Made by a program: the position numbers and the translations under genes. A stretch of 64,000 nt of DNA from Octopus vulgaris (lineage: Eukaryota): the NCBI GenBank assembly GCA_951406725.2, contig OX597814.1, forward strand, positions 206,646,001 to 206,710,000, written 5' to 3'. This document shows, in pieces, positions 8,079 through 59,442 of this stretch (the first letter of the stretch is position 1; the number at the start of each line of letters is the position of its first letter). Below the pieces are notes generated by a model. That model made no database searches, was not told the DNA's origin, and was given only the letters and a program-made list of their open reading frames with translations.

Positions 8079-8215
8079 ACACCACATCATCAAACACATC
8101 TCTTCCTGGCTCGCAAAAGGAAACCTCTTCTGTGGCACCCAGACCTAATGAGACACCCAGAGAAAATGATGGCATCAAAATACAACTATTGATTGATTCA
8201 ATTTCTAATGCATCT
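8079..8215 (+). CDS. Macrodomain module exon B, copy 1 (Ser/Thr/Pro linker plus first macrodomain strand)
   Basis: Acceptor tttttcAG, donor GTGAGT, 137 nt, phase 1->0. Reads (D)TTSSNTSLPGSQKETSSVAPRPNETPRENDGIKIQLLIDSISNAS. Confidence 0.85.
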
Positions 8216-8497
8216 GTGAGTAAATAGATTCACTTAACATATTTACGTTTAATTGTTATTTCATTTGCAAATGAGGAATCATTACAGTTAATTAAAACAT
8301 TTTCTCAATCTAACTCAAACATTTTATTTCCTTCACATCTGATATCTTGAGTATATCTTTTGCTAACTTTAACAACCTCAAACTTACTACAGCCATTCTG
8401 AAAGAGCCTTTCTTAACAACAACATCAACTGCAACAATGTATCTCTCTTCTCTCCACGGAATGTTCCTTAGTTGTTTACCATTAATTACTTTTGTAG

Positions 8498-8725
8498 GTT
8501 GATGTCATCGTTAACAGCACCAATGAAGAACTCCAGCTTAACTGTGGTGCTATCTCCAAATCTATTCTCAATGCTGCTGGTCCACAGATACAAGATGAAT
8601 GTAACCAGAAATTTCGTCGAAGTATTTCTACATCTGAAATTGCCATCACTAAAGGATATAAGCTCAACTGTAAGAATGTATTTCATCTGGTATTACCTTA
8701 CTGGAATGAATATCATTCTGATTCA
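8498..8725 (+). CDS. Macrodomain module exon C, copy 1 (N-terminal half of PARP14/BAL-type macrodomain)
   Basis: Acceptor ttttgtAG, donor GTAAGT, 228 nt, phase 0->0. Reads VDVIVNSTNEELQLNCGAISKSILNAAGPQIQDECNQKFRRSISTSEIAITKGYKLNCKNVFHLVLPYWNEYHSDS, matching the DVIVNS..L.L..G.vSk.il..AG..lq.EC..T.G..L.CK.V.H macrodomain pattern. Confidence 0.93.
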
Positions 8726-9335
8726 GTAAGTATCAATCATATTATATTGATTTATTGAAAGAGTTAATGTTTGAAGGGAACCTTATGCATGTTGTGTGAG
8801 AATCATAAAGCAAATGTCAGCATCCTGTTTAATATTTGTTCTTCCAAGTTATCATTGGAAGGAAGCAGAAGATATCGATGAACAGGACACTTTTATATAT
8901 AAATAGAAGGAAAAAAGCCTCATGGCCTAACAACAGTTATGCGACTGATAAATAAGACTATATTAAAACATATTTCTCTGTTTTACTGTCTGTATTGGTG
9001 AGTTTTTCTCTGTCATGGCACGAGCACTAGAGAGGTTGTCATGTCCTCAACAACACTAAAGACTCCTCTTGGGTCTGCATTCTCTCTCTTCATTCACCAA
9101 CCATTTTACACGGTGGATGGGGTCTGTTTAATTGTAGCAGCATCATGAGTGAGGTTGCCTTGTCTCTTGCAGGACTAAAGAGTGATAGGAATGACAGTTG
9201 TGTTTAGAAGTGGTAGGAGTGAGAGGAGTTGTGAGAGGAGGATATATTTATTACAACTTAATGGTTTCTTCCTGTAATTGGAAAATAATTTAATAAAATG
9301 TTCATTATCAATTACTAAACAATTATTTTTTTTAG

Positions 9336-9563
9336 ATTCTGGCAAACATGACTCGAATAATAACCACTTGTCTGGAAAATGCTGAGAGAATGGGAGCAAA
9401 AAGCCTGGCATTTCCTATATTAGGGGCTGAAATGAAATACCCCATTGGAAAACTACCCAGAACAATGTATGAAGCAGTGAAAAACTACTCAGATCAAAAT
9501 TCAAGCCAGATCAAAGATGTTTACTTTGTGGTTTTACCTGAAGAAGACAGAGAAATAGCAAAG
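9336..9563 (+). CDS. Macrodomain module exon D, copy 1 (C-terminal half of macrodomain)
   Basis: Acceptor ttttttAG, donor GTTGGT, 228 nt, phase 0->0. Reads ILANMTRIITTCLENAERMGAKSLAFPILGAEMKYPIGKLPRTMYEAVKNYSDQNSSQIKDVYFVVLPEEDREIAK, with the CL..A....kSiAFP.lG...v.fv macrodomain motifs. Confidence 0.93.
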
Positions 9564-9659
9564 GTTGGTTGATGTTTTTGTTGTTTGTTGTTTGATGTTG
9601 ATATTTTTGGAATTTACCAAAAGCATATTCTGCAAAAAATGAAGAAAATAGAAACAAGA

Positions 9660-10110
9660 ATCTGGAATCATTTTATAAATTTCCCCGCATGACATCCATA
9701 TGCCTTCTGTCCTGGCAAGCTTACTTGGTCTCATCACCACTGTAGCACATTTTGAGAGTCCAAACTCCATCTTGATATCATTCACAAAAATCTGCACAGA
9801 CTGGATTAAGCTGTCCAGTTCTGTCTCACTATTTGTTAACAATTTTGAGTCATTCCTGAATGCCTGCTGGTAAAGTTTTCGCTTACCTCTTCCCACATCA
9901 AACCCCAACTTTGTCTTCTGCTGTATTTCACTTAAGGGGTTTTATTCACAGTGAAAAAAAATCAGTGGAGACACACTGTTCCCCTGGAAGAGTCCTCTGT
10001 TGATATCCACCTCTGCCAGTACTTTTCATACTCTTCCATATAAAGCTTTTCATGTGTTTTGCTACTCCGTATATTTCTTTAGTTCTTGCTGTCCAAGATT
10101 ATGTTATCAA
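9660..10110 (-). mobile_element. Non-LTR RT fragment, R4/Dong-like (homologs ~26625-27075, ~41142-41595, ~59540-59995)
   Basis: DSKLLTNSETELDSLIQSVQIFVNDIKMEFGLSKCATVVMR resembles the post-YxDD region of RLE-clade RTs. Confidence 0.7.
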
Positions 10111-10141
10111 TCATTATTATTATTGTTGTTGTTGTAGTTGA

Positions 10142-11953
10142 TGTTGTGTGAGAGTAGAGTGCCCCCTGGCGAGAATGGACTGGGCCACTATATATAAAAA
10201 AGTAGTAGTGGTCTGATTAAGCGTGGAAGTTCGGATTGGAGGGCAATTCATGCTAGTTCTACAGTTCATAAGTTGATAGTCAAAGCTGGAGTTGAAAGTT
10301 TACAGTTCGAGTTAGCATGTTGGTTTGTTGGTTGTTAAAGGATTGTTGTTATGTTCTGCGTGGATACTGCCAGTTTTTCATTACACTGTTGCAGTGTATT
10401 TGTTTATCCATGAGGATAAACATATCTGGCAACAAGGATTGTTTGAAACTTCACAGGAAATAGCTTCAAGAGAAGCAACAGCAACAACCACAAGAGCTGC
10501 AAAAACAAATACTACAACATCAACAACAGTAATTGAGTTTTACAGTCAGTGAAGTCCGCAAGTCCAGTAAGATTGTTTATGCCAGATGGCACGGCTAACA
10601 CAATTTCTAAATTTACGTATAATCCAGAGGAGAATATTATGTCTCCCGTGTATTATAGAAGATATGAGGAAATTTTTAACAATGAGTGCAAGTCACGGTC
10701 GGAGGAGGAGTAAGGCTTTCACTACACAAGGTAGCTCCTGCCAAACATGAGCAGTACTGTAACTTTATTCTGCCCAGAAAGTTGAGTGAGATTGATTTCC
10801 AAGATGGCGTGGAATTGTTTTCAAAATTTTGTTTGTAAAAGTTCATTGTTGAGCGCTTTAATGGAGTAGTCAGCCATACGTGTGAAAATTTCAAACTTCA
10901 GCATCTCACTCAGGATATGTTCAAATCACTTACCTTCATGTAAGGACTTATAGCACTTGAAGACATTCAGGCAAGGATTCTCTTGAAAATGGAGCAAGCA
11001 AACCAGGATTCATCTCTACAGACCCTCACTGAAGAACGTCAGACTATAGTAAATGATGTGAAAATAATGGCGGATAAAGACTCTGCAAAACTTCAAATGT
11101 GTTGCCCTGGAAAGCAGAATCCAAAAAGTATCAGGCCCCAAACTGTGTTATGGTTATGGAGGCCTACACTACAAAAAGGATTGTCCTTTTAAAAACAAAA
11201 AGTGCTATAGTTGTCATAAGCTGGGACACAGGAGTTCTCATTGCAGAACAAGACTGCAAGGCTCAAATACAAAAAGTTCTAAGGTGTTTTCAGCAGAGAT
11301 CGATTGTGATGGAGAAACAAGAAAATTCGTGCATGTAAAGATAAATGATGTGAATACCAAATTACAGTTAGACTCAGGTAGTGACATCTTCATTATAAAT
11401 GCAGATACTAGGGAAAAATTAGTAAACCGAGATTACGCAAAGCAGCGAAAATAGCATGTGGTGTAACGGGCGACAAATTACATTTGATGGACAAAACATG
11501 TATCGACATCACATTTCGAGGAGAGACACGTGAAGCAAAATTATTCGTCTGTTTGGTACAGATTGGCTAGAACTATTCAATTTATGGTACCTCCCTGTAA
11601 ATCTTTACTGCAATAAAATAAATGGTTGTCATGTTAAAAACAAGTCTACAGAAGAAGTGAAGGAAAAATTGGAAAAAAAATGTTCCTGCAAGTGTTATTT
11701 AAAAGAGTGTTAAGAGAAGCAGTAAATGAATCAAAATGTCATTAACTGCGGTTGACCGGTGTGTTTGTTCTTCCTGTTTTGTCATCCATTTTGTGGGGGA
11801 AGGGCAGCTCAACTGAATATATTTTTCTGTCAAAAGTTGTTTGCATTTTCCCCGTCACCATTGGAGAAAGCCCAACAGAACATGGTGAGGCCTATATGTG
11901 AAAGAGGGGGAGAGATCGAGGCTCAAATACAAAATGCTTTAGGTTCTGTCTAA
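10142..11953 (+). mobile_element. Ty3/Gypsy LTR retrotransposon relic with ~2 kb internal pol deletion, U1
   Basis: Putative 5' LTR from TG at 10142 with TATA-like motif. Degenerate PBS-like tggcaacaaggat at 10427. CCHC knuckle CYSCHKLGHRSSHC and protease LDSGSD. Joins directly to the integrase end. Confidence 0.82.
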
Positions 11954-13454: not shown

Positions 13455-13536
13455 AAATTTGAGGAATATCTCCAAAATAAAGATGAAAATGAAGGAATGA
13501 TGGATAAACAGGAAAAGGAAGGATTTCATTCAAAAG
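13455..13536 (+). CDS. Macrodomain module exon E, copy 1 (terminal helix plus charged linker)
   Basis: Acceptor ttttacAG, donor GTAAAC, 82 nt, phase 0->1. Reads KFEEYLQNKDENEGMMDKQEKEGFHSK+G, which completes the macrodomain last helix and matches the phase of the next exon B. Confidence 0.82.
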
Positions 13537-13643: not shown

Positions 13644-14020
13644 TCTGTGCCGGTGGCACGTAAAAAGCACCACCCGACTGTGGCCGTTGCCAGCACCGCC
13701 CCAACTGGCCTCCGTGCTGGTGGCACATAAAAAGCACCATCCGATCTTGGCCGTTGCCAGCCTTGCCTGGCCACCGTGCCGGTGAACTTAAAAAGCACCA
13801 TCCGTCCATGGCCGTTTGCCAGCCCCGTCTGGCACCTGTCCCGGTGGCACGTAAAAAGCACCCACTACTCTCCTGGAGTGGTTGGCGTTAGGAAGGGCAT
13901 CCAGCCATAGAAACACTGCCAGATCAGACTGGGCCTGGTGCAGCCTTCTGGATTCCCAGACCCCAGTTGAACGGTCCAACCCATGCTAGCTTGGAAAGCG
14001 GACACTAAATAATGATGATG
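13644..14020 (+). mobile_element. SINE-like element with internal ggtggcacgtaaaaagcacc subrepeats and an RTE-type 3' tail, U1
   Basis: Tail gagtggttggcgttaggaagggcatccagcc...ccaacccatgctagc...aaagcggac-(GAT)n. Minus-strand relics of the same tail at ~3240-3370 and ~15520-15830. Confidence 0.7.
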
Positions 14021-14094: not shown

Positions 14095-14099
14095 TATTA

Positions 14100-14990: not shown

Positions 14991-15885
14991 TACCCTCAAG
15001 TTCCTGTGCTATCAGAATAGTAGCAGTTGTAGTATTTGTAGTATTAGCAGCTGCAGTATCTTATCATTATTTTTCTTTTTATCATTGTCACCATCACCAC
15101 CACTACAACTCTGCATGTTTCTAGTAATCCCCTATGTCAGTACAAATCTGATTTATCCTCAACTATTGAGATTTCGGATTTGATCAAATTTAGCATAACA
15201 GTCACAGAAGTGCAAGAATTTAATTAAACAATCTGGCAATCCTTCCCAAGCAAAATTACGTCATTTTAGTTTTCCCACATGTGTAGCCTTTAGGGGCCAT
15301 TCTGGTAATTGTTTGGGCTAAAAAACAAAGTCTTAAAAGCAACAACAACTTCAACAATAGTGCATGTGAGGCCTAGGAAAGCGATTTTGCCTTGCTTCTG
15401 TCATCCCGTTTCACCATCACAGGAACAAAAGAAATTAATGAGAAAAAGTGACAACAACAGCAAGAAAACAGCTGCCATGCTGGTGGCAGCTGCAGCAGGT
15501 TTGCCAGTACCACTGCCAACATCATCATCATCATCGTTTAACATCTGTTTTCTAAGCATGCATGGATTGGACAGTTGACAGGAGCCGGCAAGGTGGAAAA
15601 TAACTACCCTTCGCTACTGTGTCTGTTTTGGCAGGAATTTTACAGCTGGATGCACTTCCTAACACCAACCACTCAGCAGAGTGGACTCAGTACATTTTAC
15701 GTGGAACTAGCACAACAAAGTTAGTTTTGGCATTATTTTTGCAGTTGCCCTTCCAAATGCCCTTCCAAATGCAAGCCATTTCACAATGTGCAGTGGATGC
15801 TTTTTACATGGCACCAGTGCTGGCAGGGTCACCAAGATAATGAATTATGAGAGGGGCAAGGCATTTGATGAGGAGAGCTTGTGTC

Positions 15886-18800
15886 AGATGATGAAAGGTT
15901 AGAGTGTGACAGAGAGACAGAAAGAGGGGTCTTGCCATAACAGAGAGGGCATTGGAGGTGGTGATCCAGTAGTAGATGATGAAATGTTAGAGTGTGACAG
16001 AGAGACAGAAAGAGGGGTCTTGCCATAACAGAGAGGGCATTGGAGGAGGTGATCCAGTAGTAGATGATGAAATGTTAGAGTGTGACAGAGAGACAGAAAG
16101 AGGGGTCTTGCCATAACAGAGAGGGCATTGGAGGAGGTGATCCAGTAGTAGATGATGAAAGGTTGAGTGTGACAGAGAGACAGAAAGAGGGGTCTTGCCA
16201 TAACAGAGAGGGCATTGGAGGAGGTGATCCAGTAGTAGATGATGAAATGTTAGAGTGTGACAGAGAGACAGAAAGAGGGGTCTTGCCATAACAGAGAGGG
16301 CATTGGAGGAGGTGATCCAGTAGTAGATGATGAAATGTTAGAGTGTGACAGAGAGACAGAAAGAGGGGTCTTGCCATAACAGAGAGGGCATTGGAGGAGG
16401 TGATCCAGTAGTAGATGATGAAAGGTTAGAGTGTGACAGAGAGACAGAAAGAGGTGTCTTGCCATAACAGAGAGGGCATTGGAGGAGGTGATCCAGTAGT
16501 AGATGATGAAATGTTAGAGTGTGACAGAGAGACAGAAAGAGGGGTCTTGCCATAACAGAGAAGGCATTGGAGGAGGTGATCCAGTTGTAGATGATGAAAT
16601 GTTAGAGTGTGACAGAGAGACAGAAAGAGGGGTCTTGCCATAACAGAGAGGGCATTGGAGGTGGTGATCCAGTAGTAGATGATGAAATGTTAGAGTGTGA
16701 CAGAGAGACAGAAAGAGGGGTCTTGCCATTACAGAGAGGGCATTGGAGGAGGTGATCCAGTAGTAGATGATGAAATGTTAGAGTGTGACAGAGAGACAGA
16801 AAGAGGGGTCTTGCCATAGCAGAGAGGGCATTGGAGGAGGTGATCCAGTAGTAGATGATGAAATGTTAGAGTGTGACAGAGAGACAGAAAGAGGGGTCTT
16901 GCCATAACAGAGAGGGCATTGGAGGAGGTGATCCAGTAGTAGATGATGAAATGTTAGAGTGTGACAGAGAGACAGAAAGAGGGGTCTTGCCATAACAGAG
17001 AGGGCATTGGAGGTGGTGATCCAGTAGTAGATGATGAAATGTTAGAGTGTGACAGAGAGACAGAAAGAGGGGTCTTGCCATAGCAGAGAGGGCATTGGAG
17101 GAGGTGATCCAGTAGTAGATGATGAAATGTTAGAGTGTGACAGAGAGACAGAAAGAGGGGTCTTGCCATAACAGAGAGGGCATTGGAGGTGGTGATCCAG
17201 TAGTAGATGATGAAATGTTAGAGTGTGACAGAGAGACAGAAAGAGGGTCTTGCCATAACAGAGAGGGCATTGGAGGTGGTGATCCAGTAGTAGATGATGA
17301 AATGTTAGAGTGTGACAGAGAGACAGAAAGAGGGGTCTTGCCATAACAGAGAGGGCATTGGAGGAGGTGATCCAGTAGTAGATGATGAAATGTTAGAGTG
17401 GGACAGAGAGACAGAAAGAGGGGTCTTGCCATAACAGAGAGGGCATTGGAGGAGGTGATCCAGTAGTAGATGATGAAATGTTAGAGTGTGACAGAGAGAC
17501 AGAAAGAGGGGTCTTGCCATAACAGAGAGGGCATTGGAGGAGGTGATCCAGTTGTAGATGATGAAATGTTAGAGTGTGACAGAGAGACGGAAAGAGGGGT
17601 CTTTCCATAACAGAGAGGGCATTGGAGGTGGTGATCCAGTAGTAGATGATGAAATGTTAGAGTGTGACAGAGAGACAGAAAGAGGGGTCTTTCCATAACA
17701 GAGAGGTCATTGGAGGTGGTGATCTAGTAGTAGATGATGAAATGTTAGAGTGTGACAGAGAGACAGAAAGAGGGGTCTTGCCATAGCAGAGAGGGCATTG
17801 GAGGAGGTGATCCAGTAGTAGATGATGAAATGTTAGAGTGTGACAGAGAGACAGAAAGAGGCGTCTTGCCATAACAGAGAGGGCATTGGAGGTGGTGATT
17901 CAGTAGTAGATGATGAAATGTTAGAGTGTGACAGAGAGACAGAAAGAGGGGTCTTGCCATAGCAGAGAGGGCATTGGAGGAGGTGATCCAGTAGTAGATG
18001 ATGAAATGTTAGAGTGTGTCAGAGAGACAGAAAGAGGGGTCTTGCCATAACAGAGAGGGCATTGGAGGTGGTGATCCAGTAGTAGATGATGAAATGTTAG
18101 AGTGTGACAGAGAGACAGAAAGAGGGTCTTGCCATAACAGAGAGGGCATTGGAGGTGGTGATCCAGTAGTAGATGATGAAATGTTAGAGTGTGACAGAGA
18201 GACAGAAAGAGGGGTCTTGCCATAACAGAGAGGGCATTGGAGGTGGTGATCCAGTAGTAGATGATGAAATGTTAGAGTGTGACAGAGAGACAGAAAGAGG
18301 GGTCTTGCCATAACAGAGAGGGCATTGGAGGTGGTGATCCAGTAGTAGATGATGAAATGTTAGAGTGTGACAGAGAGACAGAAAGAGGGGTCTTGCCATA
18401 ACAGAGAGGGCATTGGAGGTGGTGATCCAGTAGTAGATGATGAAATGTTAGAGTGTGACAGAGAGACAGAAAGAGGGGTCTTGCCATAACAGAGAGGGCA
18501 TTGGAGGAGGTGATCCAGTAGTAGATGATGAAATGTTAGAGTGTGACAGAGAGACAGAAAGAGGGGTCTTGCCATAACAGAGAGGGCATTGGAGGAGGTG
18601 ATCCAGTAGTAGATGATGAAATGTTAGAGTGTGACAGAGAGACAGAAAGAGGGGTCTTGCCATAACAGAGAGGGCATTGGAGGAGGTGATCCAGTTGTAG
18701 ATGATGAAATGTTAGAGTGTGACAGAGAGACAGAAAGAGGGGTCTTGCCATAACAGAGAGGGCATTGGAGGTGGTGATCCAGTAGTAGATGATGAAATGT

Positions 18801-20396
18801 TAGAGTGTGACAGAGAGACAGAAAGAGGGGTCTTGCCATAACAGAGAGGTCATTGGAGGTGGTGATCCAGTAGTAGATGATGAAATGTTAGAGTGTGACA
18901 GAGAGACAGAAAGAGGGGTCTTGCCATAGCAGAGAGGGCATTGGAGGAGGTGATCCAGTAGTAGATGATGAAATGTTAGAGTGTGACAGAGAGACAGAAA
19001 GAGGGGTCTTGCCATAACAGAGAGGGCATTGGAGGTGGTGATCCAGTAGTAGATGATGAAATGTTAGAGTGTGACAGAGAGACAGAAAGAGGGGTCTTGC
19101 CATAACAGAGAGGGCATTGGAGGTGGTGATCCAGTAGTAGATGATGAAATGTTAGAGTGTGACAGAGAGACAGAAAGAGGGTCTTGCCATAACAGAGAGG
19201 GCATTGGAGGTGGTGATCCAGTAGTAGATGATGAAATGTTAGAGTGTGACAGAGAGACAGAAAGAGGGGTCTTGCCATAACAGAGAGGGCATTGGAGGAG
19301 GTGATCCAGTAGTAGATGATGAAATGTTAGAGTGTGACAGAGAGACAGAAAGAGGGGTCTTGCCATAACAGAGAGGGCATTGGAGGAGGTGATCCAGTAG
19401 TAGATGATGAAATGTTAGAGTGTGACAGAGAGACAGAAAGAGGGGTCTTGCCATAACAGAGAGGGCATTGGAGGAGGTGATCCAGTTGTAGATGATGAAA
19501 TGTTAGAGTGTGACAGAGAGACAGAAAGAGGGGTCTTGCCATAACAGAGAGGGCATTGGAGGTGGTGATCCAGTAGTAGATGATGAAATGTTAGAGTGTG
19601 ACAGAGAGACAGAAAGAGGGGTCTTGCCATAACAGAGAGGTCATTGGAGGTGGTGATCCAGTAGTAGATGATGAAATGTTAGAGTGTGACAGAGAGACAG
19701 AAAGAGGGTCTTGCCATAGCAGAGAGGGCATTGGAGGAGGTGATCCAGTAGTAGATGATGAAATGTTAGAGTGTGACAGAGAGACAGAAAGAGGCGTCTT
19801 GCCATAACAGAGAGGGCATTGGAGGTGGTGATCCAGTAGTAGATGATGAAATGTTAGAGTGTGACAGAGAGACAGAAAGAGGGTCTTGCCATAACAGAGA
19901 GGGCATTGGAGGTGGTGATCCAGTAGTAGATGATGAAATGTTAGAGTGTGACAGAGAGACAGAAAGAGGGGTCTTGCCATAACAGAGAGGGCATTGGAGG
20001 TGGTGATCCAGTAGTAGATGATGAAATGTTAGAGTGTGACAGAGAGACAGAAAGAGGGGTCTTGCCATAACAGAGAGGGCATTGGAGGTGGTGATCCAGT
20101 AGTAGATGATGAAATGTTAGAGTGTGACAGAGAGACAGAAAGAGGGGTCTTGCCATAACAGAGAGGGCATTGGAGGTGGTGATCCAGTAGTAGATGATGA
20201 AATGTTAGAGTGTGACAGAGAGACAGAAAGAGGGTCTTGCCATAACAGAGAGGGCATTGGAGGTGGTGATCCAGTAGTAGATGATGAAATGTTAGAGTGT
20301 GACAGAGAGACAGAAAGAGGGGTCTTGCCATAGCAGAGAGGGCATTGGAGGAGGTGATCCAGTAGTAGATGATGAAATGTTAGAGTGTGACGGAGA
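15886..20396. repeat. 88-bp intronic satellite array, ~51 copies
   Basis: Same monomer, including some 87-bp variants. Confidence 0.97.
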
Positions 20397-20694
20397 AATA
20401 AAGAAGCAGAGAGAGATGTCTTGATATAGAGGAGAGACATGGTTACCGAGGGACAGAGAAGAGGTACGCTAAAGAGGCCATAAATTGGTGTGCTGGAGTG
20501 AAGGAGGTATTTGGTTACCTAGGCAGAGGAAAAACAAGAGGAGAGAGAGAGAGAAAATGAGGAAGAATGAGACATGCAAATCTAGTCGTAACAATTTCAA
20601 CTTTGCAAGAGTAACCACAGAATTAAGTGAAGACATTTTTTATCGATGGAAATGAATTCAAGAGTGCAAAATGTAACAGAAAAATGGTATTAAA

Positions 20695-22787: not shown

Positions 22788-22900
22788 GAACCAAACCATC
22801 AGACCTTCTTAGTCCACAACAGGAATCGTCCTCTATGACACCCGGAACTAAAGTGACATCCAGAAAATATGATGGCATCAAAATAAAACTAATGATTTAG
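22788..22900 (+). pseudogene. Exon A, copy 2
   Basis: Same acceptor, frame and TAG as copy 1. Confidence 0.7.
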
Positions 22901-25068: not shown

Positions 25069-25205
25069 ACACCACATCATCAAACACATCTCTTCCTGGC
25101 TCGCAAAAGGAAATCTCTTCTGTGGCACCCAGAACTAATGAGACATCCAGAGAAAATGATGGCATCAAAATACAACTATTGATTGATTCAATTTCTAATG
25201 CATCT
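25069..25205 (+). CDS. Macrodomain module exon B, copy 2
   Basis: AG/GTGAGT intact. Reads (D)TTSSNTSLPGSQKEISSVAPRTNETSRENDGIKIQLLIDSISNAS. Confidence 0.85.
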
Positions 25206-25486: not shown

Positions 25487-25714
25487 GTTGATGTCATCGT
25501 TAACAGCACAAATAAAAGCCTCCAGCTTAACAGTGGTGCTGTCTCCAAATCTATTCTCAATGCTGCTGGTCCACAGATACAAAATGAATGCAACGAGGAA
25601 TATTCTCGAGGTATTTCTACATCTGAAATTGCCGTCACTAAAGGATATAAGCTCAACTGTAAGAATGTATTTCATCTGGCATTACCTTACTGGGATGAAT
25701 ATTCCTCTGATTCA
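25487..25714 (+). CDS. Macrodomain module exon C, copy 2
   Basis: AG/GTAAGT intact. Reads VDVIVNSTNKSLQLNSGAVSKSILNAAGPQIQNECNEEYSRGISTSEIAVTKGYKLNCKNVFHLALPYWDEYSSDS. Confidence 0.93.
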
Positions 25715-26324: not shown

Positions 26325-26552
26325 ATTCTGGCAAACTTGACTCGAATAATAACCACTTGTCTGGAAACTGCTGAGAGAATGGGAGCAAAAAGCCTGGCAT
26401 TTCCTATATTAGGGGCTGAAATGAAATACCCCATTGGAAAACTACCCAGAACAATGTCTGAAGCAGTGAAAAACTATTCAGATCAAAATTCAAGCCGGAT
26501 CAAAGATGTTTACTTTGCGGTTTTACCTGAAGAAGACAGAGAAATAGCAAAG
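26325..26552 (+). CDS. Macrodomain module exon D, copy 2
   Basis: AG/GTTGGT intact. Reads ILANLTRIITTCLETAERMGAKSLAFPILGAEMKYPIGKLPRTMSEAVKNYSDQNSSRIKDVYFAVLPEEDREIAK. Confidence 0.93.
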
Positions 26553-30407: not shown

Positions 30408-30489
30408 AAATTTGAAGAATATCTCCAAAATAAAGACGAAAATGAAGGAATGATGGATAAACAGGAAAAGGAAAGATTTCATTCAAAAG
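30408..30489 (+). CDS. Macrodomain module exon E, copy 2
   Basis: ttttgcAG/GTAAAC. Reads KFEEYLQNKDENEGMMDKQEKERFHSK+G. Confidence 0.82.
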
Positions 30490-37202: not shown

Positions 37203-37315
37203 GAACCAAACCATCAGACCTTCTTAGTCCTCAACAGGAATCGTCCTCTATGACACCCAGAACTAAAGTGACATCCAGAAAATATGATGGCATCAAAATA
37301 AAACTAATGATTTAG
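37203..37315 (+). pseudogene. Exon A, copy 3
   Basis: Same AG acceptor, frame and TAG as copy 1. Confidence 0.7.
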
Positions 37316-39490: not shown

Positions 39491-39521
<31 letters not shown>

Positions 39522-39561
39522 ATAAAGTGTACATATGTTGATATTTGTTTATTTTTTTCAG

Positions 39562-39698
39562 ACACCACATCATCAAACACATCTCTTCATGTTTCGCAAA
39601 AGGAAATCTCTTCTGTGGCACCCAGAACTAATGAGACACCCAGAGAAAATGATGGCATCAAAATACAACTATTGATTGATTCAATTTCTAATGCAACT
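39562..39698 (+). CDS. Macrodomain module exon B, copy 3
   Basis: AG/GTGAGT intact. Reads (D)TTSSNTSLHVSQKEISSVAPRTNETPRENDGIKIQLLIDSISNAT. Confidence 0.85.
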
Positions 39699-39979: not shown

Positions 39980-40207
39980 GTTGATGTCATCATTAACAGA
40001 ACCAATAAAAACCTCTACCTTAACATTGGTGCTATCTCCAAATCTATTCTCAATGCTGCTGGTCCACAGATACAATATGAATGTAACCAGAAATATCCTC
40101 GAGCTATTTCTACATCTACAATAGCCATTACTAAAGGATATAACCTCAACTGTAAGAATGTATTTCATCTGGTATTACCTTACTGGAATGTATATTCTTC
40201 TGATTCA
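39980..40207 (+). CDS. Macrodomain module exon C, copy 3
   Basis: AG/GTAAGT intact. Reads VDVIINRTNKNLYLNIGAISKSILNAAGPQIQYECNQKYPRAISTSTIAITKGYNLNCKNVFHLVLPYWNVYSSDS. Confidence 0.93.
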
Positions 40208-40817: not shown

Positions 40818-41045
40818 ATTCTGGCAAACTTGACCCGAATAATAACCACTTGTCTGGAAACTGCTGAGAGAATGGGAGCAAAAAGCCTGGCATTTCCTAT
40901 ATTAGGGGCTGAAATGAAATACCCCATTGGAAAACTACCCAGAACAATGTATGAAGCAGTGAAAAACTACTCAGATCAAAATTCAAGCCAGATCAAAGAT
41001 GTTTACTTTGTGGTTTTACCTGAAGAAGACAGAGAAATAGCAAAG
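40818..41045 (+). CDS. Macrodomain module exon D, copy 3
   Basis: AG/GTTGGT intact. Reads ILANLTRIITTCLETAERMGAKSLAFPILGAEMKYPIGKLPRTMYEAVKNYSDQNSSQIKDVYFVVLPEEDREIAK. Confidence 0.93.
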
Positions 41046-46988: not shown

Positions 46989-47070
46989 AAATTTGAAGAA
47001 TATCTCCAAAATAAAGACGAAAATGAAGGAATGATGGATAAACAGGAAAAGGAAAGATTTCATTCAAAAG
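46989..47070 (+). CDS. Macrodomain module exon E, copy 3
   Basis: ttttacAG/GTAAAC. Reads KFEEYLQNKDENEGMMDKQEKERFHSK+G. Confidence 0.82.
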
Positions 47071-47328: not shown

Positions 47329-48257
47329 CCTTTCTTTTCTTCTTTCAAATTTGCTTCCATTTCTTGCCGAGTGTCTTCCCGACTCTTAGGGCAAAGAAAC
47401 TCATAGTATACATTGGTAGGCCATTAAACTAAACTCAATAGTTCGTTCATTTTTTTTTTTTTTTAAGTTAAATTAAATTACATGGGTCGTAATAATTCTC
47501 ACATCGACAATGCTCTTCTCAATACATGTGATGTACCAGTTAAGACAATCTTTTGCACTTCTTGCAGGGATGGTACGCCAGGGATCATTCTCATATAATT
47601 TTCGGTTCCCTTCTTGATCATTCCTAGTGCTCCTACGATCACTGGTATTGTAACCGCCTTGAGATGCCACATTTTCTCAATTTCAATGAGTAGGTCTTTA
47701 TATTTACTGAGCTTGTCAAACTCTTTCGCTGAGATATTATGATCACAGGGGATGCTCATGTCGATCAATAAGCAAACTTTATTGTTTTGGTCTTTCACAA
47801 CAATATCTGGTTTATTGGCCTTGATGGTTCGGTCTGTATGTACTGGAAAGTCCCACAGAATCGTTACATTTTCTCCTTCAGTTACAGCCTCAGGGTGGTG
47901 ATTATACCACTTGTCGGCAGTTTTGATATTGTAATGCCGACTTATTAGCCAGTGTAGATATTGGCCAACTCTGTCATGTCTTAATTTATACTCCACTGGT
48001 GCTAAGACTTTACATCCAGAGATTAGGTGGTCCACTGTTTCAATCATGTCGTTGCAGAATCGGCATTTTGGGTCTGCTCCATTTTTCATCACATTGGCCT
48101 GGTAGTTCCGGGTTAATAGGCTTTGATCTTGAGCAGCCAGGATGAAACCTTCGCTCTCTGCTTTTAGCCCTGAGCTCCGTAGCCACTGATGGATTTGCTT
48201 CTGGTCAACATCAGCTTGTTTGCTGCGGGCCACGTATTTGCCGTGCAGAGGTTTCTC
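47329..48257 (-). mobile_element. R4/Dong-like family 1 fragment, U3 (shorter, open 244-aa frame)
   Basis: ORF 47499-48233 with CCHC, RHD and PD-D/E-K motifs. Confidence 0.88.
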
Positions 48258-48342
48258 TGCATATTATGGTGTTTTGTCATACCGTCTCTATTAAACACTG
48301 TTTATTATAAATATGATTAATGTTAATATCATTATTATCATT

Positions 48343-48806
48343 CTGTGCCGGTGGCACATAAAAAGCACCACCCGACTGTGGCTGTGGCCAGCACCACCCG
48401 ACTGTGGCCGTGGCCAGCACCACCCGACTGGCCTCTGTGCTGGTGGCACGTAAAAAGCACAATCCGATCGTGGCTGTTGCCAGCTTCACCTGGTCCCCGT
48501 GCCGGTGGACGTAAGAAGCACCATCCGTCCATGACCGTTTGCCAGCCCCGTCTGGCATCTGTCCCGGTGCTACATAAAAAGCACCATCCGATCGTGGCCG
48601 TTGCCAGCCACGTCTGGCACCTGTGCCGGTGGCACGTAAAAAGCACCCACTACACTCACGGAGTGGTTGGCGTTAGGAAGGGCATCCAGCCATAGATACA
48701 CTGCCAGATCAGACTGCGCCTGGTGCAGCCTTCTGGCTTCCCAGACCCCAGTTGAACGGTCCAACCCATGCTAGCATGGAAAGCGGACACTAAATAATGA
48801 TGATGA
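48343..48806 (+). mobile_element. Same SINE-like element, U3 (more subrepeats); absent in U2
   Basis: Homologous to 13644-14020. Confidence 0.7.
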
Positions 48807-48870: not shown

Positions 48871-50705
48871 TATTATTATGATTGCTATTATTGTTATAGA
48901 TGTGGCACAGTATACAATATCGTGAGATTGTTGATCGAAGATATTGTGTCTACTCGGGGTTTGCAGTGTTTGTCAAGTCACAAGAAGGACCTCAGGCAGA
49001 CAATACTTTACACAATTCCAAGTAATGCTGACTTTTGCAATACATCTAGATTGCGGAGTATCTCTAAGGACTTCAGATGTTTTTTCAGTTTGGATCGTAT
49101 TGAACCCAAAACTCCGATGACAATAGGGATAACCTTTATGTTTGACTCTTGTACCTGCCACATCTTAGCAATCTCAATTCTCAGGTTTCCATATTTATCA
49201 ACCTTTTTCTCTTTATTTCATGATGATGTGTTGATCTCCTGGCCCTGCCAAATCGATTATTTGGCACTTTTGTTTGTCCCTTCTAAAGGTTTCTATATCT
49301 GGCCTTCAGTTCTCTAACACTTTGTCTGTCTGGAAATCAAAGTCCCAGAGGATTTTTGCCTTCCCCTTTTCGTTCATTACTTTTTTGGTGTATGTTGGTA
49401 CCAAGCACCCATAACCTCATATCCATACTTATGGCATAGTAGCCAGTGGAGGTTTTCGGCTACTTTGTCGTGTCTACGCTTGAACTCTTCCTGCGCAAGA
49501 CTTTCTCAAGCACTACTTTCGGCCCTCTTCCCACACATTCTGCAGAGATCCGTTGCACTTGTGTGGTATATATTCTTTTCCACTGAGTCCTGGGCCCAAA
49601 TGATTAGGCTTTCAGTATTTTTCATTAGGTCACCCTTGTTGAGCCATTCTATGATGCTTCTTTGTCTTTTAATTTGTTGGTTCCAGTGGAACTGTAATTC
49701 CATACGGAGTAGGGTTTCTTCTCTCCGTCGGCTGTTCGTGATCAGAATTCATGTTTACCCTCAAGTTCCTGTGCTATCAGAATAGAAGCAGTTGTAGTAT
49801 TTGTAGTATTAGCAGCTGCAGTATCCTATCATTATTTTTCTTTTTATCATTGTCACCATCACCACCACTACAACTCTGCATGTTTCTAGTAATCCCCTAT
49901 GTCAGTACAAATCTGATTTATCCTCAACTATTGAGATTTCGGATTTGATCAAATTTAGCATAACAGTCACAGAAATGCAAGAATTTAATTAAACAATCTG
50001 GCAATCCCAAGCAAAATTACGTCATTTTAGTTTTCCCACATGTGTAGCCTTTAGGGGCCATTCTGGTAATTGTTTGGGCTAAAATACAAGGGTGGGGAAC
50101 GAGAATTGTTCATCCATTGAAAAGAAGAGCTGGTCCCCCAGAAGAGAGATCAGCCAAGTCTCAAAAGCAACAACAACATCAACAATAGTGCATGTGAGGC
50201 CTAGGAAAACGATTTTGCCTTGCTTCTGTCATCCCATTTCACCATCACAGGAACAAAAGAAATTAATGAGAAAAAGTGACAACAACAGCGAGAAAACAGC
50301 TGCCATGCTGGTGGCAGCTGCAGCAGGTTTGCCAGTACCACTGCCAACATCATCATCATCATCGTTTAACATCTGTTTTCTAAGCATGCATGGATTGGAC
50401 AGTTGACAGGAGCCGGCAAGGTGGAAAATAACTACCCTTCGCTACTGTGTCTGTTTTGGCAGGAATTTTACAGCTGGATGCACTTCCTAACACCAACCAC
50501 TCAGCAGAGTGGACTCAGTACATTTTACGTGGAACTAGCACAACAAAGTTAGTTTTGGCATTATTTTTGCAGCTAGATGCCCTTCCAAATGCAAGCCATT
50601 TCACAATGTGCAGTGGATGCTTTTTACATGGCACCAGTGCTGGCAGGGTCACCAAGATAATGAATTATGAGAGGGGCAAGGCATTTGATGAGGAGAGCTT
50701 GTGTC

Positions 50706-53638
50706 AGATGATGAAAGGTTAGAGTGTGACAGAGAGACAGAAAGAGGGGTCTTGCCATAGCAGAGAGGGCATTGGAGGAGGTGATCCAGTAGTAGATGAT
50801 GAAATGTTAGAGTGTGACAGAGAGACAGAAAGAGGGGTCTTGCCATAACAGAGAGGGCATTGGAGGTGGTGATCCAGTAGTAGATGATGAAAGGTTAGAG
50901 TGTGACAGAGAGACAGAAAGAGGGGTCTTGCCATAACAGAGAGGGCATTGGAGGAGGTGATCCAGTAGTAGATGATGAAAGGTTAGAGTGTGACAGAGAG
51001 ACAGAAAGAGGGGTCTTGCCATAGCAGAGAGGGCATTGGAGGAGGTGATCCAGTAGTAGATGATGAAATGTTAGAGTGTGACAGCGAGACAGAAAGAGGG
51101 GTCTTGCCATAACAGAGAGGGCATTGGAGGAGGTGATCCAGTAGTAAATGATGAAATGTTAGAGTGTGACAGAGAGACAGAAAGAGGGGTCTTGCCATAA
51201 CAGAGAGGGCATTGGAGGTGGTGATCTAGTAGTAGATGATGAAAGGTTAGAGTGTGACAGAGAGACAGAAAGAGGGGTCTTGCCATAACAGAGAGGGCAT
51301 TGGAGGAGGTGATCCAGTAGTAGATGATGAAATGTTAGAGTGTGACAGAGAGGCAGAAAGAGGGGTCTTGCCATAACAGAGAGGGCATTAGAGGTGGTGA
51401 TCCAGTAGTAGATGATGAAATGTTAGAGTGTGACAGAGAGACAGAAAGAGGGGTCTTGCCATAACAGAGAGGGCATTGGAGGAGGTGATCCAGTAGTAGA
51501 TGATGAAATGTTAGAGTGTGACAGAGAGACAGAAAGAGGGGTCTTGCCATAACAGAGAGGGCATTGGAGGTGGTGATCCAGTAGTAGATGATGAAAGGTT
51601 AGAGTGTGACAGAGAGACAGAAAGAGGGGTCTTGCCATAACAGAGAGGGCATTGGAGGAGGTGATCCAGTAGTAGATGATGAAATGTTAGAGTGTGACAG
51701 AGAGACAGAAAGAGGGGTCTTGCCATAACAGAGAGGGCATTGGAGGTGGTGATCCAGTAGTAGATGATGAAATGTTAGAGTGTGACAGAAAGACAGAAAG
51801 AGGGGTCTTGCCATAACAGAGAGGGCATAGGAGGTGGTGATCCAGTAGTAGATGATGAAAGGTTAGAGTGTGACAGAGAAACAGAAAGAGGGGTCTTGCC
51901 ATAGCAGAGAGGGCATTGGAGGAGGTGATCCAGTAGTAGATGATGAAATGTTAGAGTGTGACAGAGAGACAGAAAGAGGGGTCTTGCCATAACAGAGAGG
52001 GCATTGGAGGTGGTGATCCAGTAGTAGATGATGAAAGGTTAGAGTGTGACAGAGAGACAGAAAGAGGGGTCTTGCCATAACAGAGAGGGCATTGGAGGAG
52101 GTGATCCAGTAGTAGATGATGAAATGTTAGAGTGTGACAGAGAGGCAGAAAGAGGGGTCTTGCCATAACAGAGAGGGCATAGGAGGTGGTGATCCAGTAG
52201 TAGATGATGAAATGTTAGAGTGTGACAGAGAGACAGAAAGAGGGGTCTTGCATAACAGAGAGGGCATTGGAGGAGGTGATCCAGTAGTAGATGATGAAAT
52301 GTTAGAGTGTGACAGAGAGACAGAAAGAGGGGTCTTGCCATAACAGAGAGGGCATTGGAGGTGGTGATCCAGTAGTAGATGATGAAAGGTTAGAGTGTGA
52401 CAGAGAGACAGAAAGAGGGGTCTTGCCATAACAGAGAGGGCATTGGAGGAGGTGATCCAGTAGTAGATGATGAAATGTTAGAGTGTGACAGAGAGACAGA
52501 AAGAGGGGTCTTGCCATAACAGAGAGGGCATTGGAGGTGGTGATCCAGTAGTAGATGATGAAATGTTAGAGTGTGACAGAAAGACAGAAAGAGGGGTCTT
52601 GCCATAACAGAGAGGGCATAGGAGGTGGTGATCCAGTAGTAGATGATGAAAGGTTAGAGTGTGACAGAGAAACAGAAAGAGGGGTCTTGCCATAGCAGAG
52701 AGGGCATTGGAGGAGGTGATCCAGTAGTAGATGATGAAATGTTAGAGTGTGACAGAGAGACAGAAAGAGGGGTCTTGCCATAACAGAGAGGGCATTGGAG
52801 GTGGTGATCCAGTAGTAGATGATGAAAGGTTAGAGTGTGACAGAGAGACAGAAAGAGGGGTCTTGCCATAACAGAGAGGGCATTGGAGGTGGTGATCTAG
52901 TAGTAGATGATGAAATGTTAGAGTGTGACAGAGAGACAGAAAGAGGGGTCTTGCCATAACAGAGAGGGCATTGGAGGAGGTGATCTAGTAGTAGATGATG
53001 AAATGTTAGAGTGTGACAGAGAGACAGAAAGAGGGGTCTTGCCATAACAGAGAGGGCATTGGAGGTGGTGATCTAGTAGTAGATGATGAAAGGTTAGAGT
53101 GTGACAGAGAGACAGAAAGAGGGGTCTTTCCATAACAGAGAGGGCATTGGAGGAGGTGATCCAGTAGTAGATGATGAAATGTTAGAGTGTGACAGAGAGG
53201 CAGAAAGAGGGGTCTTGCCATAACAGAGAGGGCATTGGAGGAGGTGATCCAGTAGTAGATGATGAAATGTTAGAGTGTGACAGAGAGACAGAAAGAGGGA
53301 TCTTGCCATAACAGAGAGGGCATTGGAGGAGGTGATCCAGTAGCAGATGATGAAATGTTAGAGTGTGACAGAGAGACAGAAAGAGGGGTCTTGCCATAAC
53401 AGAGAGGGCATTGGAGGTGGTGATCCAGTAGTAGATGATGAAATGTTAGAGTGTGACAGAGAGACATAAAGAGGGGTCTTGCCATAACAGAGAGGGCATT
53501 GGAGGTGGTGATCCAGTAGTAGATGATGAAATGTTAGAGTGTGACAGAGAGACAGAAAGAGGGGTCTTGCCATAGCAGAGAGGGCATTGGAGGAGGTGAT
53601 CCAGTAGTAGATGATGAAATGTTAGAGTGTGACGGAGA
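50706..53638. repeat. 88-bp intronic satellite array, ~33 copies
   Basis: Same monomer. Confidence 0.97.
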
Positions 53639-56055
53639 AATAAAGAAGCAGAGAGAGATGTCTTGCTATAGAGGAGAGACATGGTTACCGAGGGACAGAG
53701 AAAGAGGTACGCAAAAGAGGCCATAAATTGGTGTGCTGGTGTGAAGGAGGTATTTGGTTACCTAGGCAGAGGAAAAACAAGAGGAGAGAGAGAGAGAGAA
53801 AATGAGGAAGAATGAGACATGCAAATCTAGTCGTAACAATTTCAACTTTGCAAGAGTAACCACAGAATTAAGTGAAGACATTTTTTATCGATGGAAATTT
53901 ATTCAAGAATGCAAAATGTAGCAGAAAAATGGTATTAAACATTCATAGAACTGGCCCCGCAAAAAATTAATTTGTGGACAGTTCTATATAAAACAACTGA
54001 AGTCAAAAGTAGGGAAGTGGAGCAGGCAACACAGCAGCAAATAGAGAAATACCTAGAAGCAGTTTAGAAAAGCAAAGCCTACGTAGCCAGGTTAAAGAAA
54101 GAAATATGGGACTGTCAAAGTGCGTTCTGTCTCAGAGGAGGAGACCAAAAATAACTGGATGGCCATCCTAGCAAGGGACAAACACATTGTCATCCCCATC
54201 TACTTTGGTCGAAGAATATTCAGAGTTAGAATACTCAACATAATGCCAACCATTTTAGAGTGTGGACTGGAAGCTGCTTTTCTCATGGCACCAGCACTGG
54301 TGAGGTTACCAAGTATCTTGCAAGCCCCCTGATGGAACTGGGGAGTGGGGAGGTGGCTTGAGGCCAGGGCTAGAAAGTCTAAAGTTTGCCAGAGGCTTAA
54401 GCACATAGATCTAGAGGAGACTCGTGGCGTCCTTATATTTATGCAAAGGTGCATGACAGTATCTGGAAGGAAGAAAGATGGTGGTAATAGAGTGCCAGGG
54501 CATAGTCCCAAATTACAAGAAGGGGAGTATAAGGGAGACTGTGGATGAGTAAAGAAGGAATGGGAGGGTAATGGCATCAGAGTGTGAGATGAAAAGTGCA
54601 GAGGTTAGAGATGGGGCTTGAGGTGGTTGTAGAGAGTGAGAAACAATGGTTTGAGGTGGAGTCGCGAGACTGACGGGGCTCGGAAAGGAGGAGGTGACAA
54701 GAAGCCTCAGAGGAAGGGTAGAGAGCAGCAGAATCATCAATCTGTTGATAGATGAGGAGGAAGAGAGATGAAGACCAGGATCTGACAGCAGAGGGAAAGC
54801 AAAGATGATGAAGTGTGAAAGAGATAGGAGTCAGAGATACATGGGGGTGGCTATAGTGAGTGGGGCCAGAAAATTGGAGGGAGTATTAGCAATGACTGTG
54901 AGAGGGTGTTGAGAATGATTGCAGATAGGAGAAGTGTTCAACAGGAAACCTGGCAGAGTAAGGTGTAGCTAAGAGGGGTGGGTGGGAAAGATTTGGGAAG
55001 GGACAGAAAGGGATGATCGATGGAAGGTTGTATGGATGGAGATGATGATGAAAGAGATGCAACTGGTATTAATGAAAGGGTGGGGGTGGTGATGAATGCT
55101 CTCAAATGGTTACAGCAGTAAAGTAGGACCATAGTTAGAAGAGTATAATAGAGGGATGGGTGTTAGGAAGATGAGATGTGGTGAAGGGGATGCTTCACAG
55201 GGGCAAATGTGGGCGTAAGGCCCCGCATGGACAGGAATATATATCACAGTTTTTGGACATGACTTTTGCTGTGACAAATGTGTCTTTATATATCATTTTG
55301 TTCAACTTGTGCCAGCATGGACATGAAATGTAGATGGGGATAATGCTGATGATGGCATGCCTATACGTATGTACATCATGATCATCATCATTTAGCATCC
55401 ATTGTCCATGCTGGCATGGGTTGGACGGTTTGACTGGGGCTGGCAAGGTGAGGGGCTACACCATCTCCAGTCTGACATGGTATGGTTTCTACAGCTGGAT
55501 ACCTTTCCTAACCACCAATGTAATGGCTGCTTTTATTTACCACCAGCATGGATGCTAGATACATGATGCCAGCATCAACCACATGGCCTCTATGAGGCAC
55601 AACCCCCAAATGGTACATTTTACGTGAGACTGGCATGGCTGGCAGGTAGGTGACACCTACAAAGACCACAGCTATGATTTCATTCGGCTTGATATGTCTT
55701 CTCAAGTATGACATATCGCCAAATGTCTCGGTCACTATAGTCATTGCTTCCATGTGGCCCATCATTTGATGATTATGCTTAAGCACCTCATTCCATATCT
55801 TCCTGGGCCTCCCTCTTCTACAGCTTCCTCCCACTGGTAGAGATTGGAACTTCTTCAGATGTCGTGTGCGGTTGTCTCTCTTGTACACCACATCTGATGG
55901 TTCTTATGCCCAGCTAAGATATATATATATAAATTGTCAATATAACATATATCAGAATGAGAAGCACACCCTAAAGAATAGAGCAGACTTTATGATTGAA
56001 AATGTGTATGTTTGTGTGTGTGTATGTATGTATGTTTATATTTGTTTATTTTCAG

Positions 56056-56168
56056 GAACCAAACCATCAGACCTTCTTAGTCCACAACAGGAATCGTCCT
56101 CTATGACACCCGGAACTAAAGTGACATCCAGAAAATATGATGGCATCAAAATAAAACTAATGATTTAG
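56056..56168 (+). pseudogene. Exon A, copy 4
   Basis: Same acceptor, frame and TAG as copy 1. Confidence 0.7.
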
Positions 56169-57758: not shown

Positions 57759-57880
57759 AATATGCTTCAACACACAAACTCACATAAAGAATCTTGCAAA
57801 CCAAATCCAAAAATGAAATACATATACGGACGTTAAATGATGATGATGATGATGATGATATATATCTTTGTGAGTGTGTG

Positions 57881-57920
<40 letters not shown>

Positions 57921-57957
57921 AAGTGTACATATGTTGATATTTGTTTATTTTTTTCAG

Positions 57958-58094
57958 ACACCACATCATCAAACACATCTCTTCCTGGCTCGCAAAAGGA
58001 AACCTCTTCTGTGGCACCCAGACCTAATGAGACACCCAGAGAAAATGATGGCATCAAAATACAACTATTGATTGATTCAATTTCTAATGCATCT
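57958..58094 (+). CDS. Macrodomain module exon B, copy 4
   Basis: AG/GTGAGT intact. Protein identical to copy 1. Confidence 0.85.
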
Positions 58095-58375
58095 GTGAGT
58101 AAATAGATTCACTTAACATATTTACGTTTAATTGTTATTTCATTTCCAAATGAGGAATCATTAAAGTTAATTAAAACATTTTCTCAATCGAACTCAAACA
58201 TTTTATTTCCTTCACATCTGATATCTTGAGTATATCTTTTGCTAACTTTAACAACCTCAAACTTACTACAGCCATTCTGTAGAGCCTTTCTTAACAACAA
58301 TATCAACTTCAACAATGTATCTCTTTTCTCTCCATGGAATGTTCCTTTGCTGTTTACCATTAATTACTTTTGTAG

Positions 58376-58603
58376 GTTGATGTCATCGTTAACAGCACCA
58401 ATAAAAACCTCCAGCTTAACAATGGTTCTATCTCCAAATCTATTCTCAATGCTGCAGGTCCACATATACAAAATGAATGTAACGAGGAATATCCTCGAGG
58501 TATTTCTACATCTACAATAGCCATTACTAAAGGATATAACCTCAAATGTAAGAATGTATTTCATCTGGTATTACCTTCCTGGTATGAATATTCCTCTGAT
58601 TCA
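58376..58603 (+). CDS. Macrodomain module exon C, copy 4
   Basis: AG/GTAAGT intact. Reads VDVIVNSTNKNLQLNNGSISKSILNAAGPHIQNECNEEYPRGISTSTIAITKGYNLKCKNVFHLVLPSWYEYSSDS. Confidence 0.93.
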
Positions 58604-59214
58604 GTAAGTATCAATCATATTATATTGATTTATTGAAACAGTTAATGTTTGAAGAGAACCTTATGCATGTTGTGTGAGAATCATAAAGCAAATGTCAGCA
58701 TCCTGTTTAATATTTGTTCTTCCAAGTTATCATTGGACGGAAGCAGAAGATATCGATGAACAGGACACTTTTATATATAAATAGAAGGAAAAAAGCCTCA
58801 TGGCCTAACAACAGTTATGTGACTGATAAATAAGACTATATTAAAACATATTTCTGTGTTTTACTGTCTGTATTGGTGAGTTTTTCTCTGTCATGGCACG
58901 AGCACTAGAGAGGTTGTCATGTCCTCAACAACACTAAAGACTCCTCTTGGGTCTGCATTGTCTCTCTTCATTCACCAACCACTTTACACGGTGGATGCGG
59001 TCTGTTTTATTGTAGCAGCATCATGAGTGAGGTTGCCTTGTCCCTTGCAGGACTAAAGAGTGATAGGAATGACAGTTGTGTTTAGAAGTGGTAGGAGTGA
59101 GAGGAATTGTGAGAGGAGGATATATTTATGACAACTTAATGGTTTCTTCCTGTAATAAGAAAATAATTTAATAAAATGTTCATTATCAATTACTAAACAA
59201 TTATTTTTTATTAG

Positions 59215-59442
59215 ATTCTGGCAAACTTGACCCGAATAATAACCACTTGTCTGGAAAAAGCTGAGAGAATGGGAGCAAAAAGCCTGGCATTTCCTATATT
59301 AGGGGCTGAAATGAAATACCCCATTGGAAAACTACCCAGAACAATGTATGAAGCAGTGAAAAACTACTCAAATCAAAATTCAAGCCAGCTCAAAGATGTT
59401 TACTTTGTGGTTTTACCTGAAGAAGACAGAGAAATAGCAAAG
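59215..59442 (+). CDS. Macrodomain module exon D, copy 4
   Basis: AG/GTTGGT intact. Reads ILANLTRIITTCLEKAERMGAKSLAFPILGAEMKYPIGKLPRTMYEAVKNYSNQNSSQLKDVYFVVLPEEDREIAK. Confidence 0.93.

Follow-up and report, generated by a model that had tools for sequence, protein, structure and literature searches.

A probable poly-macrodomain PARP14-like gene built of tandem in-frame cassettes in Octopus vulgaris

Ancestral macroPARPs are reported to have carried three macrodomains, and human PARP14 proper (ARTD8/BAL2), one of the closest known systems to the locus presented here, has exactly three, old and diverged from each other (PMC10221186). Positive selection has acted on primate PARP macrodomains at surfaces remote from the ADP-ribose site, and turnover of PARP14/15 genes is frequent, while induction of macroPARPs by infection and their antiviral activity are known for mammals (PMC4038475, PMC13224862). 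We analysed a stretch of 64,000 nt of the Octopus vulgaris genome (contig OX597814.1, positions 206,646,001 to 206,710,000 of the forward strand; further referred to as the window), which would represent the middle of one PARP14-like gene, the counterpart of Octopus sinensis XP_029633854. In contrast to the three diverged macrodomains of human PARP14, the window has at least four copies of one domain repeated at 87-90% identity. We regard it as part of a real poly-macrodomain PARP14-like gene, probably a functional one, and consider it very likely that its units are in-frame cassettes of a single gene. The full reading, i.e., that of an accordion-like octopus macroPARP whose internal domains are non-catalytic, probably bind ADP-ribose poorly and have one diversifying face, seems to us likely.

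The window contains four tandem units (W1 to W4, in order), which are 95-97% identical over kilobases and spaced, from exon B to exon B, by 16,990, 14,493 and 18,396 nt (range 14.5-18.4 kb). Each unit is composed of exons B (137 nt), C (228 nt), D (228 nt) and E (82 nt), together 675 nt or 225 aa, all on the + strand. Exon B (B1 to B4 at 8079..8215, 25069..25205, 39562..39698 and 57958..58094) encodes, as annotated for W1, a Ser/Thr/Pro linker and the first macrodomain strand and passes from phase 1 to phase 0; exon C (C1 to C4 at 8498..8725, 25487..25714, 39980..40207 and 58376..58603) is hypervariable and encodes the N-terminal macrodomain half, loop 1 included. The C-terminal half with loop 2, where G-A-E-M stands in place of G-A-G-x-L, is encoded by exon D (D1 to D4 at 9336..9563, 26325..26552, 40818..41045 and 59215..59442), and the last helix with a charged linker by exon E (E1 to E3 at 13455..13536, 30408..30489 and 46989..47070; phase 0 to 1), E4 being expected past the window end. 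The cassette is thus symmetric, as B begins and E finishes in phase 1, and the E-to-B joint codes for Asp. All 30 splice dinucleotides (AG/GT) of the 15 exons present are intact, and coordinate-based in silico splicing of these exons yields 872 aa with 0 stops. Exon sizes, exon ends and the Asp junction agree over the whole span with those proposed in an earlier note on this DNA, made from the letters alone. The same note supposed that the array continues past both window ends, which is borne out by a further copy of the E-to-B intron in bases 1-8078 and of the D-to-E intron in bases 59443-64000.

Exon C of all four units scores above the Pfam Macro PF01661 cut-off (42-50 bits; cut-off 22), and the closest sequence relative in PDB is PARP14 macrodomain 2, followed by macrodomain 3, in keeping with the BAL-type assignment made earlier. 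The predicted fold of the orthologous O. sinensis cassette (predicted local distance difference test, pLDDT, 88.7) is also best matched by PARP14 macrodomain 2, with a template modelling (TM) score of 0.90 to 5O2D/3Q71. With this human domain (3Q71, 3VFQ, 5O2D), the best match in both sequence and fold, the window units share the non-catalytic type and the loop-1 glycine, but differ in the loop-2 glycine, which is replaced.

The exon C homologue set comprised 36 proteins from 72 candidates, with O. sinensis PARP14/15-like models as the best. The closest relative, RefSeq XP_029633854.1 (1,358 aa), consists of a partial macrodomain 1, five cassettes (one without exon D in this isoform) and a PARP domain (PF00644, E 3e-17), with 6 Macro stretches in total against the exactly three macrodomains of PARP14. 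On alignment to the catalytic domain of PARP14, it has His, Tyr and Ile at the matching places; such an H-Y-hydrophobic triad, found here in the orthologue only, is a mark of mono-ADP-ribosyltransferases. PARP14 proper has a WWE domain and an N-terminal RRM/KH region. Neither WWE (a further difference from human PARP14) nor RRM gave a Pfam match in XP_029633854.1, a model that begins within macrodomain 1 and is possibly truncated; RRM was found in the octopus paralogues P0009 and P0011. The isoform models of this protein (XP_029633862.1, XP_029633869.1, XP_029633883.1, XP_036364536.1 and XP_036364551.1) differ by entire 225-aa or 216-aa cassettes. The O. sinensis protein and the window have in common the 225-aa cassette, the E-to-B junction and the loop-2 change in internal domains, and W1 and W3 are 92% identical to its cassettes, while W4 has no counterpart there. 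None of the 36 homologous proteins matches any window exon peptide exactly. The window units group with the XP_029633854.1 cassettes in a quick protein tree, which covers 53 of 63 domains (10 macrodomain-1/bacterial rows dropped), is mostly unresolved and recombination-confounded, and was used solely for this grouping. A protein with five of the same cassettes and a PARP domain supports the earlier claim of one gene grown by in-frame tandem duplication. It also means that the gene is not hidden, as had been stated, since its type is already annotated in RefSeq, in a record that is an automated model and not a described gene.

The paralogues CAI9716700.1 (P0009, O. vulgaris) and P0010 (O. sinensis) contain macrodomain 1, one middle and one last macrodomain, and PARP. 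Like the window, they have a middle domain of the changed-loop type and the same B-C-D-E linker sequences, and their last domain has an intact loop 2; unlike in the window, the middle domain is single. Their architecture is likely the unamplified state. O. sinensis and O. vulgaris possess a large PARP14-like family (P0001-P0038, P0188-P0196) with 1-6 macrodomains, most members of which lie on the largest scaffold. XP_036364520.1, with five macrodomains of mixed loop-2 types, is a second independent poly-macrodomain gene.

Evidence of splicing came from four sequencing runs, presumed to be RNA, contigs of which were aligned to 30300-41100 at 90% likeness. The E-to-B joint, leading from the donor of E2 at 30489 to the acceptor of B3 at 39562 with GT..AG borders and 9,072 nt skipped, was listed for two of the four runs, derived from two studies with two organism labels. 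The D-to-E joint is present in all four and C-to-D appears as loose ends in two. In the two runs with the E-to-B joint, exon bins are 2,200-4,600 deep vs 4-7 in the C-D intron bin, a pattern as for spliced RNA. A second joint, with a shortened E, occurs in one run. Of 196 proteins compared, the only ones with its junction were five isoforms of the poly-macrodomain gene, in which it connects two internal cassettes. At least one sample thus shows cassette-to-cassette splicing of the orthologous multi-cassette gene. Splicing of E to the next B is therefore established for the gene family and would by extension apply to the window locus. The E-to-B junction anticipated by the earlier note has thus been recovered at the level of the family, and the four window units would lie in one transcript.

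Between the units, tblastn with 34 octopus/argonaut macroPARP proteins detected no macrodomain-1, RRM or PARP exons (0 high-scoring segment pairs outside B, C, D, E and B'). This is in line with the earlier statement that no start or terminal exon lies there, which has to be amended in that a stop-bearing pseudo-exon, B', does. It is present on the + strand in every E-to-B intron (copies 0 to 3 at 3909..4021, 22788..22900, 37203..37315 and 56056..56168). B' is a paralogue of exon B, 76% alike, with a good acceptor and the same phase, but in all four copies it ends at an in-frame TAG where B has GAT, and it is without a donor in the frame of C; splicing B' in would consequently end the protein. 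It is closer to B exons of other octopus paralogues than to the window's own B. In our reading, it is what remains of an older partial cassette and was copied along in the duplications. One could imagine that B' is instead a functional alternative last exon, giving rise to PARP-less macrodomain decoys of graded length, and the conservation of acceptor, phase and TAG in 4/4 copies, the AATAAA motifs nearby and the existence of several macrodomain-only octopus protein models would suit such a role. We find this very improbable indeed, as B' is variable in 3 of 113 columns, i.e., at the intron background rate, its exact peptide is absent from the compared proteins (best 75% over 28 aa), and no E-to-B' joint was detected among the 15 of 69 contig joints listed, nor does any listed joint lead into copy 2. 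In the two runs that are informative here, contig depth over B' was 73 and 5, figures which, as contigs give no levels, are not proof of skipping. To all appearances, the relic is skipped in splicing.

As for ligand binding, loop 2 of all four units reads G-A-E-M (G-A-E-M-K) and has lost one residue relative to G-A-G-x-L, the form in most octopus paralogues. In the alignment, the Glu falls on the glycine that normally holds the diphosphate, as in Af1521 (S-A-G) and PARP14 (G-T-G). Among 391 motif matches from 142 representative proteins, 350 have glycine here, according to a regular-expression count in which the 41 non-glycine cases include some false matches and the set includes a few octopod proteins; in the O. 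sinensis orthologue it is kept by the last macrodomain only. The equivalent residue of macroH2A1.1 is presumably G314. Its substitution (G314E) abolishes poly(ADP-ribose) binding (PMC5770377), and the equivalent G-I-F motif in viral Mac1 packs against both phosphates (PMC10802294). The loop-1 Gly at exon C codon 17, which aligns with the R-G-P glycine, is found in 47 of 47 distinct peptides. We take it to be G1044 of PARP14. A G1044 mutant of PARP14 is named in PMC10499325.

Hydrolase macrodomains are characterized by Asn/Ser and Gly in loop 1 and a hydrophobic-aromatic pair in loop 2 (PMC10221186). The units have G-A-E-M-K in loop 2 in all four cases and a loop 1 without a glycine-rich stretch, and judged by these published features the repeated domains are predicted not to be hydrolases. 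The AlphaFold confidence of loop 2 is low both in a changed domain (block mean 62) and in an intact-glycine control (64), and thus uninformative on binding. From their sequences, we rather favour the view that the cassette domains do not erase ADP-ribose and bind it poorly. The loss of the loop-2 glycine makes it doubtful that the repeats are simply more ADP-ribose readers.

The repeated domains were earlier described as near-identical, which masks exon C, where the units differ by 17-25 of 228 nt (7-11%). Segregating columns amount to 38/228 in exon C, 17/281 and 27/610 in the flanking introns, and 10/228 in exon D. Counted as minimum changes, exon C has 35 non-synonymous changes over 178 sites (0.197) and 6 synonymous over 50 (0.119), and the introns 46 over 891 (0.052), the difference between exon C non-synonymous sites and introns being highly significant (p = 3e-9). 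Alignment and predicted secondary structure place exon C codons 7-19 in loop 1 and the beginning of the helix that follows it; in macrodomains, this face lies next to the distal ribose and the modified target. Variants in common with the five cassettes of the O. sinensis gene were found at 21 of 24 variable aa positions in C vs 4 of 14 in B, D and E (p = 0.0004), and exon B is nearer within a genome (0-5 aa in the window) than between the window and O. sinensis (5-11 aa). The pattern of exon C is one of old variants retained against homogenisation; unlike exon C, B, D and E are largely homogenised. We lean towards selection as the cause of this retention and reshuffling.

Several of our results weigh against the reading outlined above. 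Synonymous sites of exon C are also raised relative to introns (0.119 vs 0.052, p = 0.05), as is the 100 nt upstream of it relative to the background, and the dN/dS of exon C, at 1.65-2.0, is not significantly above 1 (p = 0.30; with the intron transition bias applied, ratio 2.0 and p = 0.07). Exon C motifs are shared by many paralogues, which lie on one large scaffold size class. These observations would fit a gene of the same structure in which exon C diversity is neutral and arises via conversion with older PARP14-like paralogues, the domains being ordinary readers whose number raises avidity. We deem this possible but unlikely: the excess is limited to exon C and ends within ~60 nt of its donor, each window exon C is nearest to a cassette of the orthologous gene (3-10 aa), other paralogues being at least 13 aa away, and the structural core positions of exon C are invariant in 47/47 distinct octopus peptides, with loop positions 11, 16, 33 and 68 taking 6-7 states.

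Exons B and D, in turn, are without purifying selection (14 non-synonymous and 3 synonymous changes, a rate equal to that of introns), as in a neutral or dying array, and the probability of no stop arising among 61 random substitutions is 0.08. Along with the lack of exact window-exon matches in annotated proteins and the family-level nature of the RNA evidence, this might indicate a silent or decaying segmental duplication that has acquired no stop so far. Such a pseudogene appears very unlikely to us. From the nine indel blocks of ~3,065 intron columns, 1.7 would be expected over 593 exon columns, and none was seen (P = 0.18), so that the combined probability of no stop and no indel is 0.014; intactness of the exons, taken by itself, is modest evidence of constraint. 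All 30 splice dinucleotides remain intact while the neighbouring B' has a stop, and the orthologous gene is modelled complete with a PARP domain and has its internal junction represented in contigs.

The remaining points of this kind concern the locus itself. The E-to-B joint is not listed in two of the four runs, the identity of all four as RNA is a guess, and the full-length E-to-B junction occurs also once each in P0009 and P0010, so that, given the 90% likeness used, the joints do not prove splicing of the window locus. Start, macrodomain-1 and PARP exons are absent from the window; the PARP domain is present in the orthologue, from which its link to the O. vulgaris locus is drawn, and the loss of ADP-ribose binding is predicted by motif alignment.

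Comparison of the two genomes, in which unit order and number differ, as the earlier note had asked of other species, sheds light on the history of the array. The units are mosaics, with all three four-taxon partitions present among 24 informative sites, and intron insertions conflict as well: a gypsy extension unites units 3 and 4, a LINE piece introns 2 and 3, and a minisatellite block introns 0, 1 and 3. In exon C, W1 is 7 aa away from the O. sinensis cassette at residue 552, W2 3 aa from that at 403 and W3 6 aa from that at 768, and these three window exons are 13-17 aa away from each other; C4 has no close O. sinensis counterpart (at least 10 aa differ). The O. sinensis 403-552-768 types correspond to W2, W1 and W3, and for the order to differ in this way, units must have been gained and lost further. 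We conclude that the accordion is real, yet that the array predates in part the split of the two octopus genomes; the amplification is thus not wholly recent, as exon C types are common to the O. sinensis array.

The identity of 95-97% over kilobases, long minisatellites included, could raise the suspicion of mis-joined haplotypes or another assembly artefact. This is hardly credible in view of four distinct exon C versions, 7-11% apart, of unit-specific insertions of 0.4-5 kb, and of the independent O. sinensis assembly, which has matching individual cassettes in one gene.

The E-to-B introns are rich in repeats. An 88-bp minisatellite, purine-rich, with 96-98% matches and strong GC skew, occupies 15858..20436 (51 copies) as well as 120-1540 (15+ copies) and 50678-53678 (33 copies), and is missing from the intron between units 2 and 3; it is a likely substrate of unequal crossing-over. 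One of the four E-to-B introns only contains, at 4186-5994 within an (AT)n tract, ~3.2 copies of a 532-bp AT-rich unit (99.7-99.8% identity) with an inverted partial copy at the end, which is either a young non-autonomous element or a local assembly fold-back. A broken Penelope-like retroelement (GIY-YIG, E 3e-5) at 6335-7144, with copies at 23371, 37835 and 56639, lies just upstream of each B and was duplicated together with the units. In the D-to-E intron, a gypsy-like relic (zinc knuckle, protease and RNase H matches) is found at 10500-11700, and units 3 and 4 only have a gypsy-like 2-kb extension (43184-45236 and 61586-63646). Pieces of a non-LTR (long terminal repeat) retrotransposon on the minus strand (30904-32156 and 47499-48263), with zf-RVT, an endonuclease-like C-terminus and open stretches of 234-254 aa, are strongly covered by contigs in 4/4 runs, which indicates that the family is abundant or transcribed. 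Short GC-rich repeats of 62-67 nt at 13647-13862 and 48364-48647 belong to a dispersed element which we assume to be typical of octopus genomes. Long intron open reading frames were considered as gene parts and rejected, being retroelement relics or simple repeats.

In the explanation that we prefer, the middle macrodomain of a three-macrodomain ancestor would sit on a symmetric phase-1 four-exon cassette, and unequal crossing-over in the long repeat-rich E-to-B intron would gain or lose whole domains, with domain number changing in frame owing to the symmetry of the cassette. Each E would be joined to the next B, with the relic B' skipped. Gene conversion would hold B, D, E and the introns 95-99% alike, with old exon C variants kept and reshuffled. 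By analogy with what is known of the family, the product may serve in innate defence as a variable protein-contact or decoy array placed before a mono-ADP-ribosyltransferase. Going further, one may speculate that an ADP-ribose reader was turned into a variable recognition array, in which non-binding macrodomains with exon C surfaces under diversifying selection, reshuffled by crossing-over and cassette-skipping splicing, would act as pathogen sensors or decoys with a PARP effector, akin to integrated decoys or Dscam, and which would have originated repeatedly in molluscs and echinoderms; we offer this extension as a decidedly doubtful one.

We also surveyed the best 150 cluster representatives, 142 of them further proteins. 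Three macrodomains were found in 91 and four to six in 19, and 14 possess an internal pair of at least 60% identity. Proteins with internal repeats include those of Pecten (6 domains, 95%), Patiria, Babylonia, Saccostrea and Argonauta. Like the window, Pecten maximus XP_033756244.1, Patiria miniata XP_038071238.1, Babylonia areolata XP_076462556.1 and Argonauta hians GAB1599116.1 have tandem macrodomains (87-96% identical, up to 6), but they represent independent lineages. Near-identical internal macrodomain repeats (87-98%) were also noted in scallop P0045, sea star P0046, whelk P0050, P0107 and argonaut P0039. Their presence in several animals implies that recent macrodomain repetition is uncommon but recurrent, and not restricted to octopus.

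Our literature search, which most subscription papers lie outside of, found no paper on the octopus gene or on poly-macrodomain PARPs; the supplement of the macroPARP survey PMC10221186 lists one O. sinensis protein, XP_036356136.1, and none of the accessions found here. The architecture itself is already in the annotation of the sister genome, while we came across no publication on the accordion between genomes, on the hypervariable exon or on the altered diphosphate loop of the amplified copies. With the architecture in RefSeq and its recurrence in other animals, the surprise is limited. Yet, macroPARPs have been described as having two or three ancient macrodomains, and here domain number shifts between closely related octopus genomes. 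The array constitutes a near-isogenic set of domains for asking what non-catalytic macrodomains recognise, a question prompted by the positive selection seen in primate macrodomains outside the ADP-ribose site. For cephalopods, animals without adaptive receptors, it is a candidate case of diversified innate immunity.

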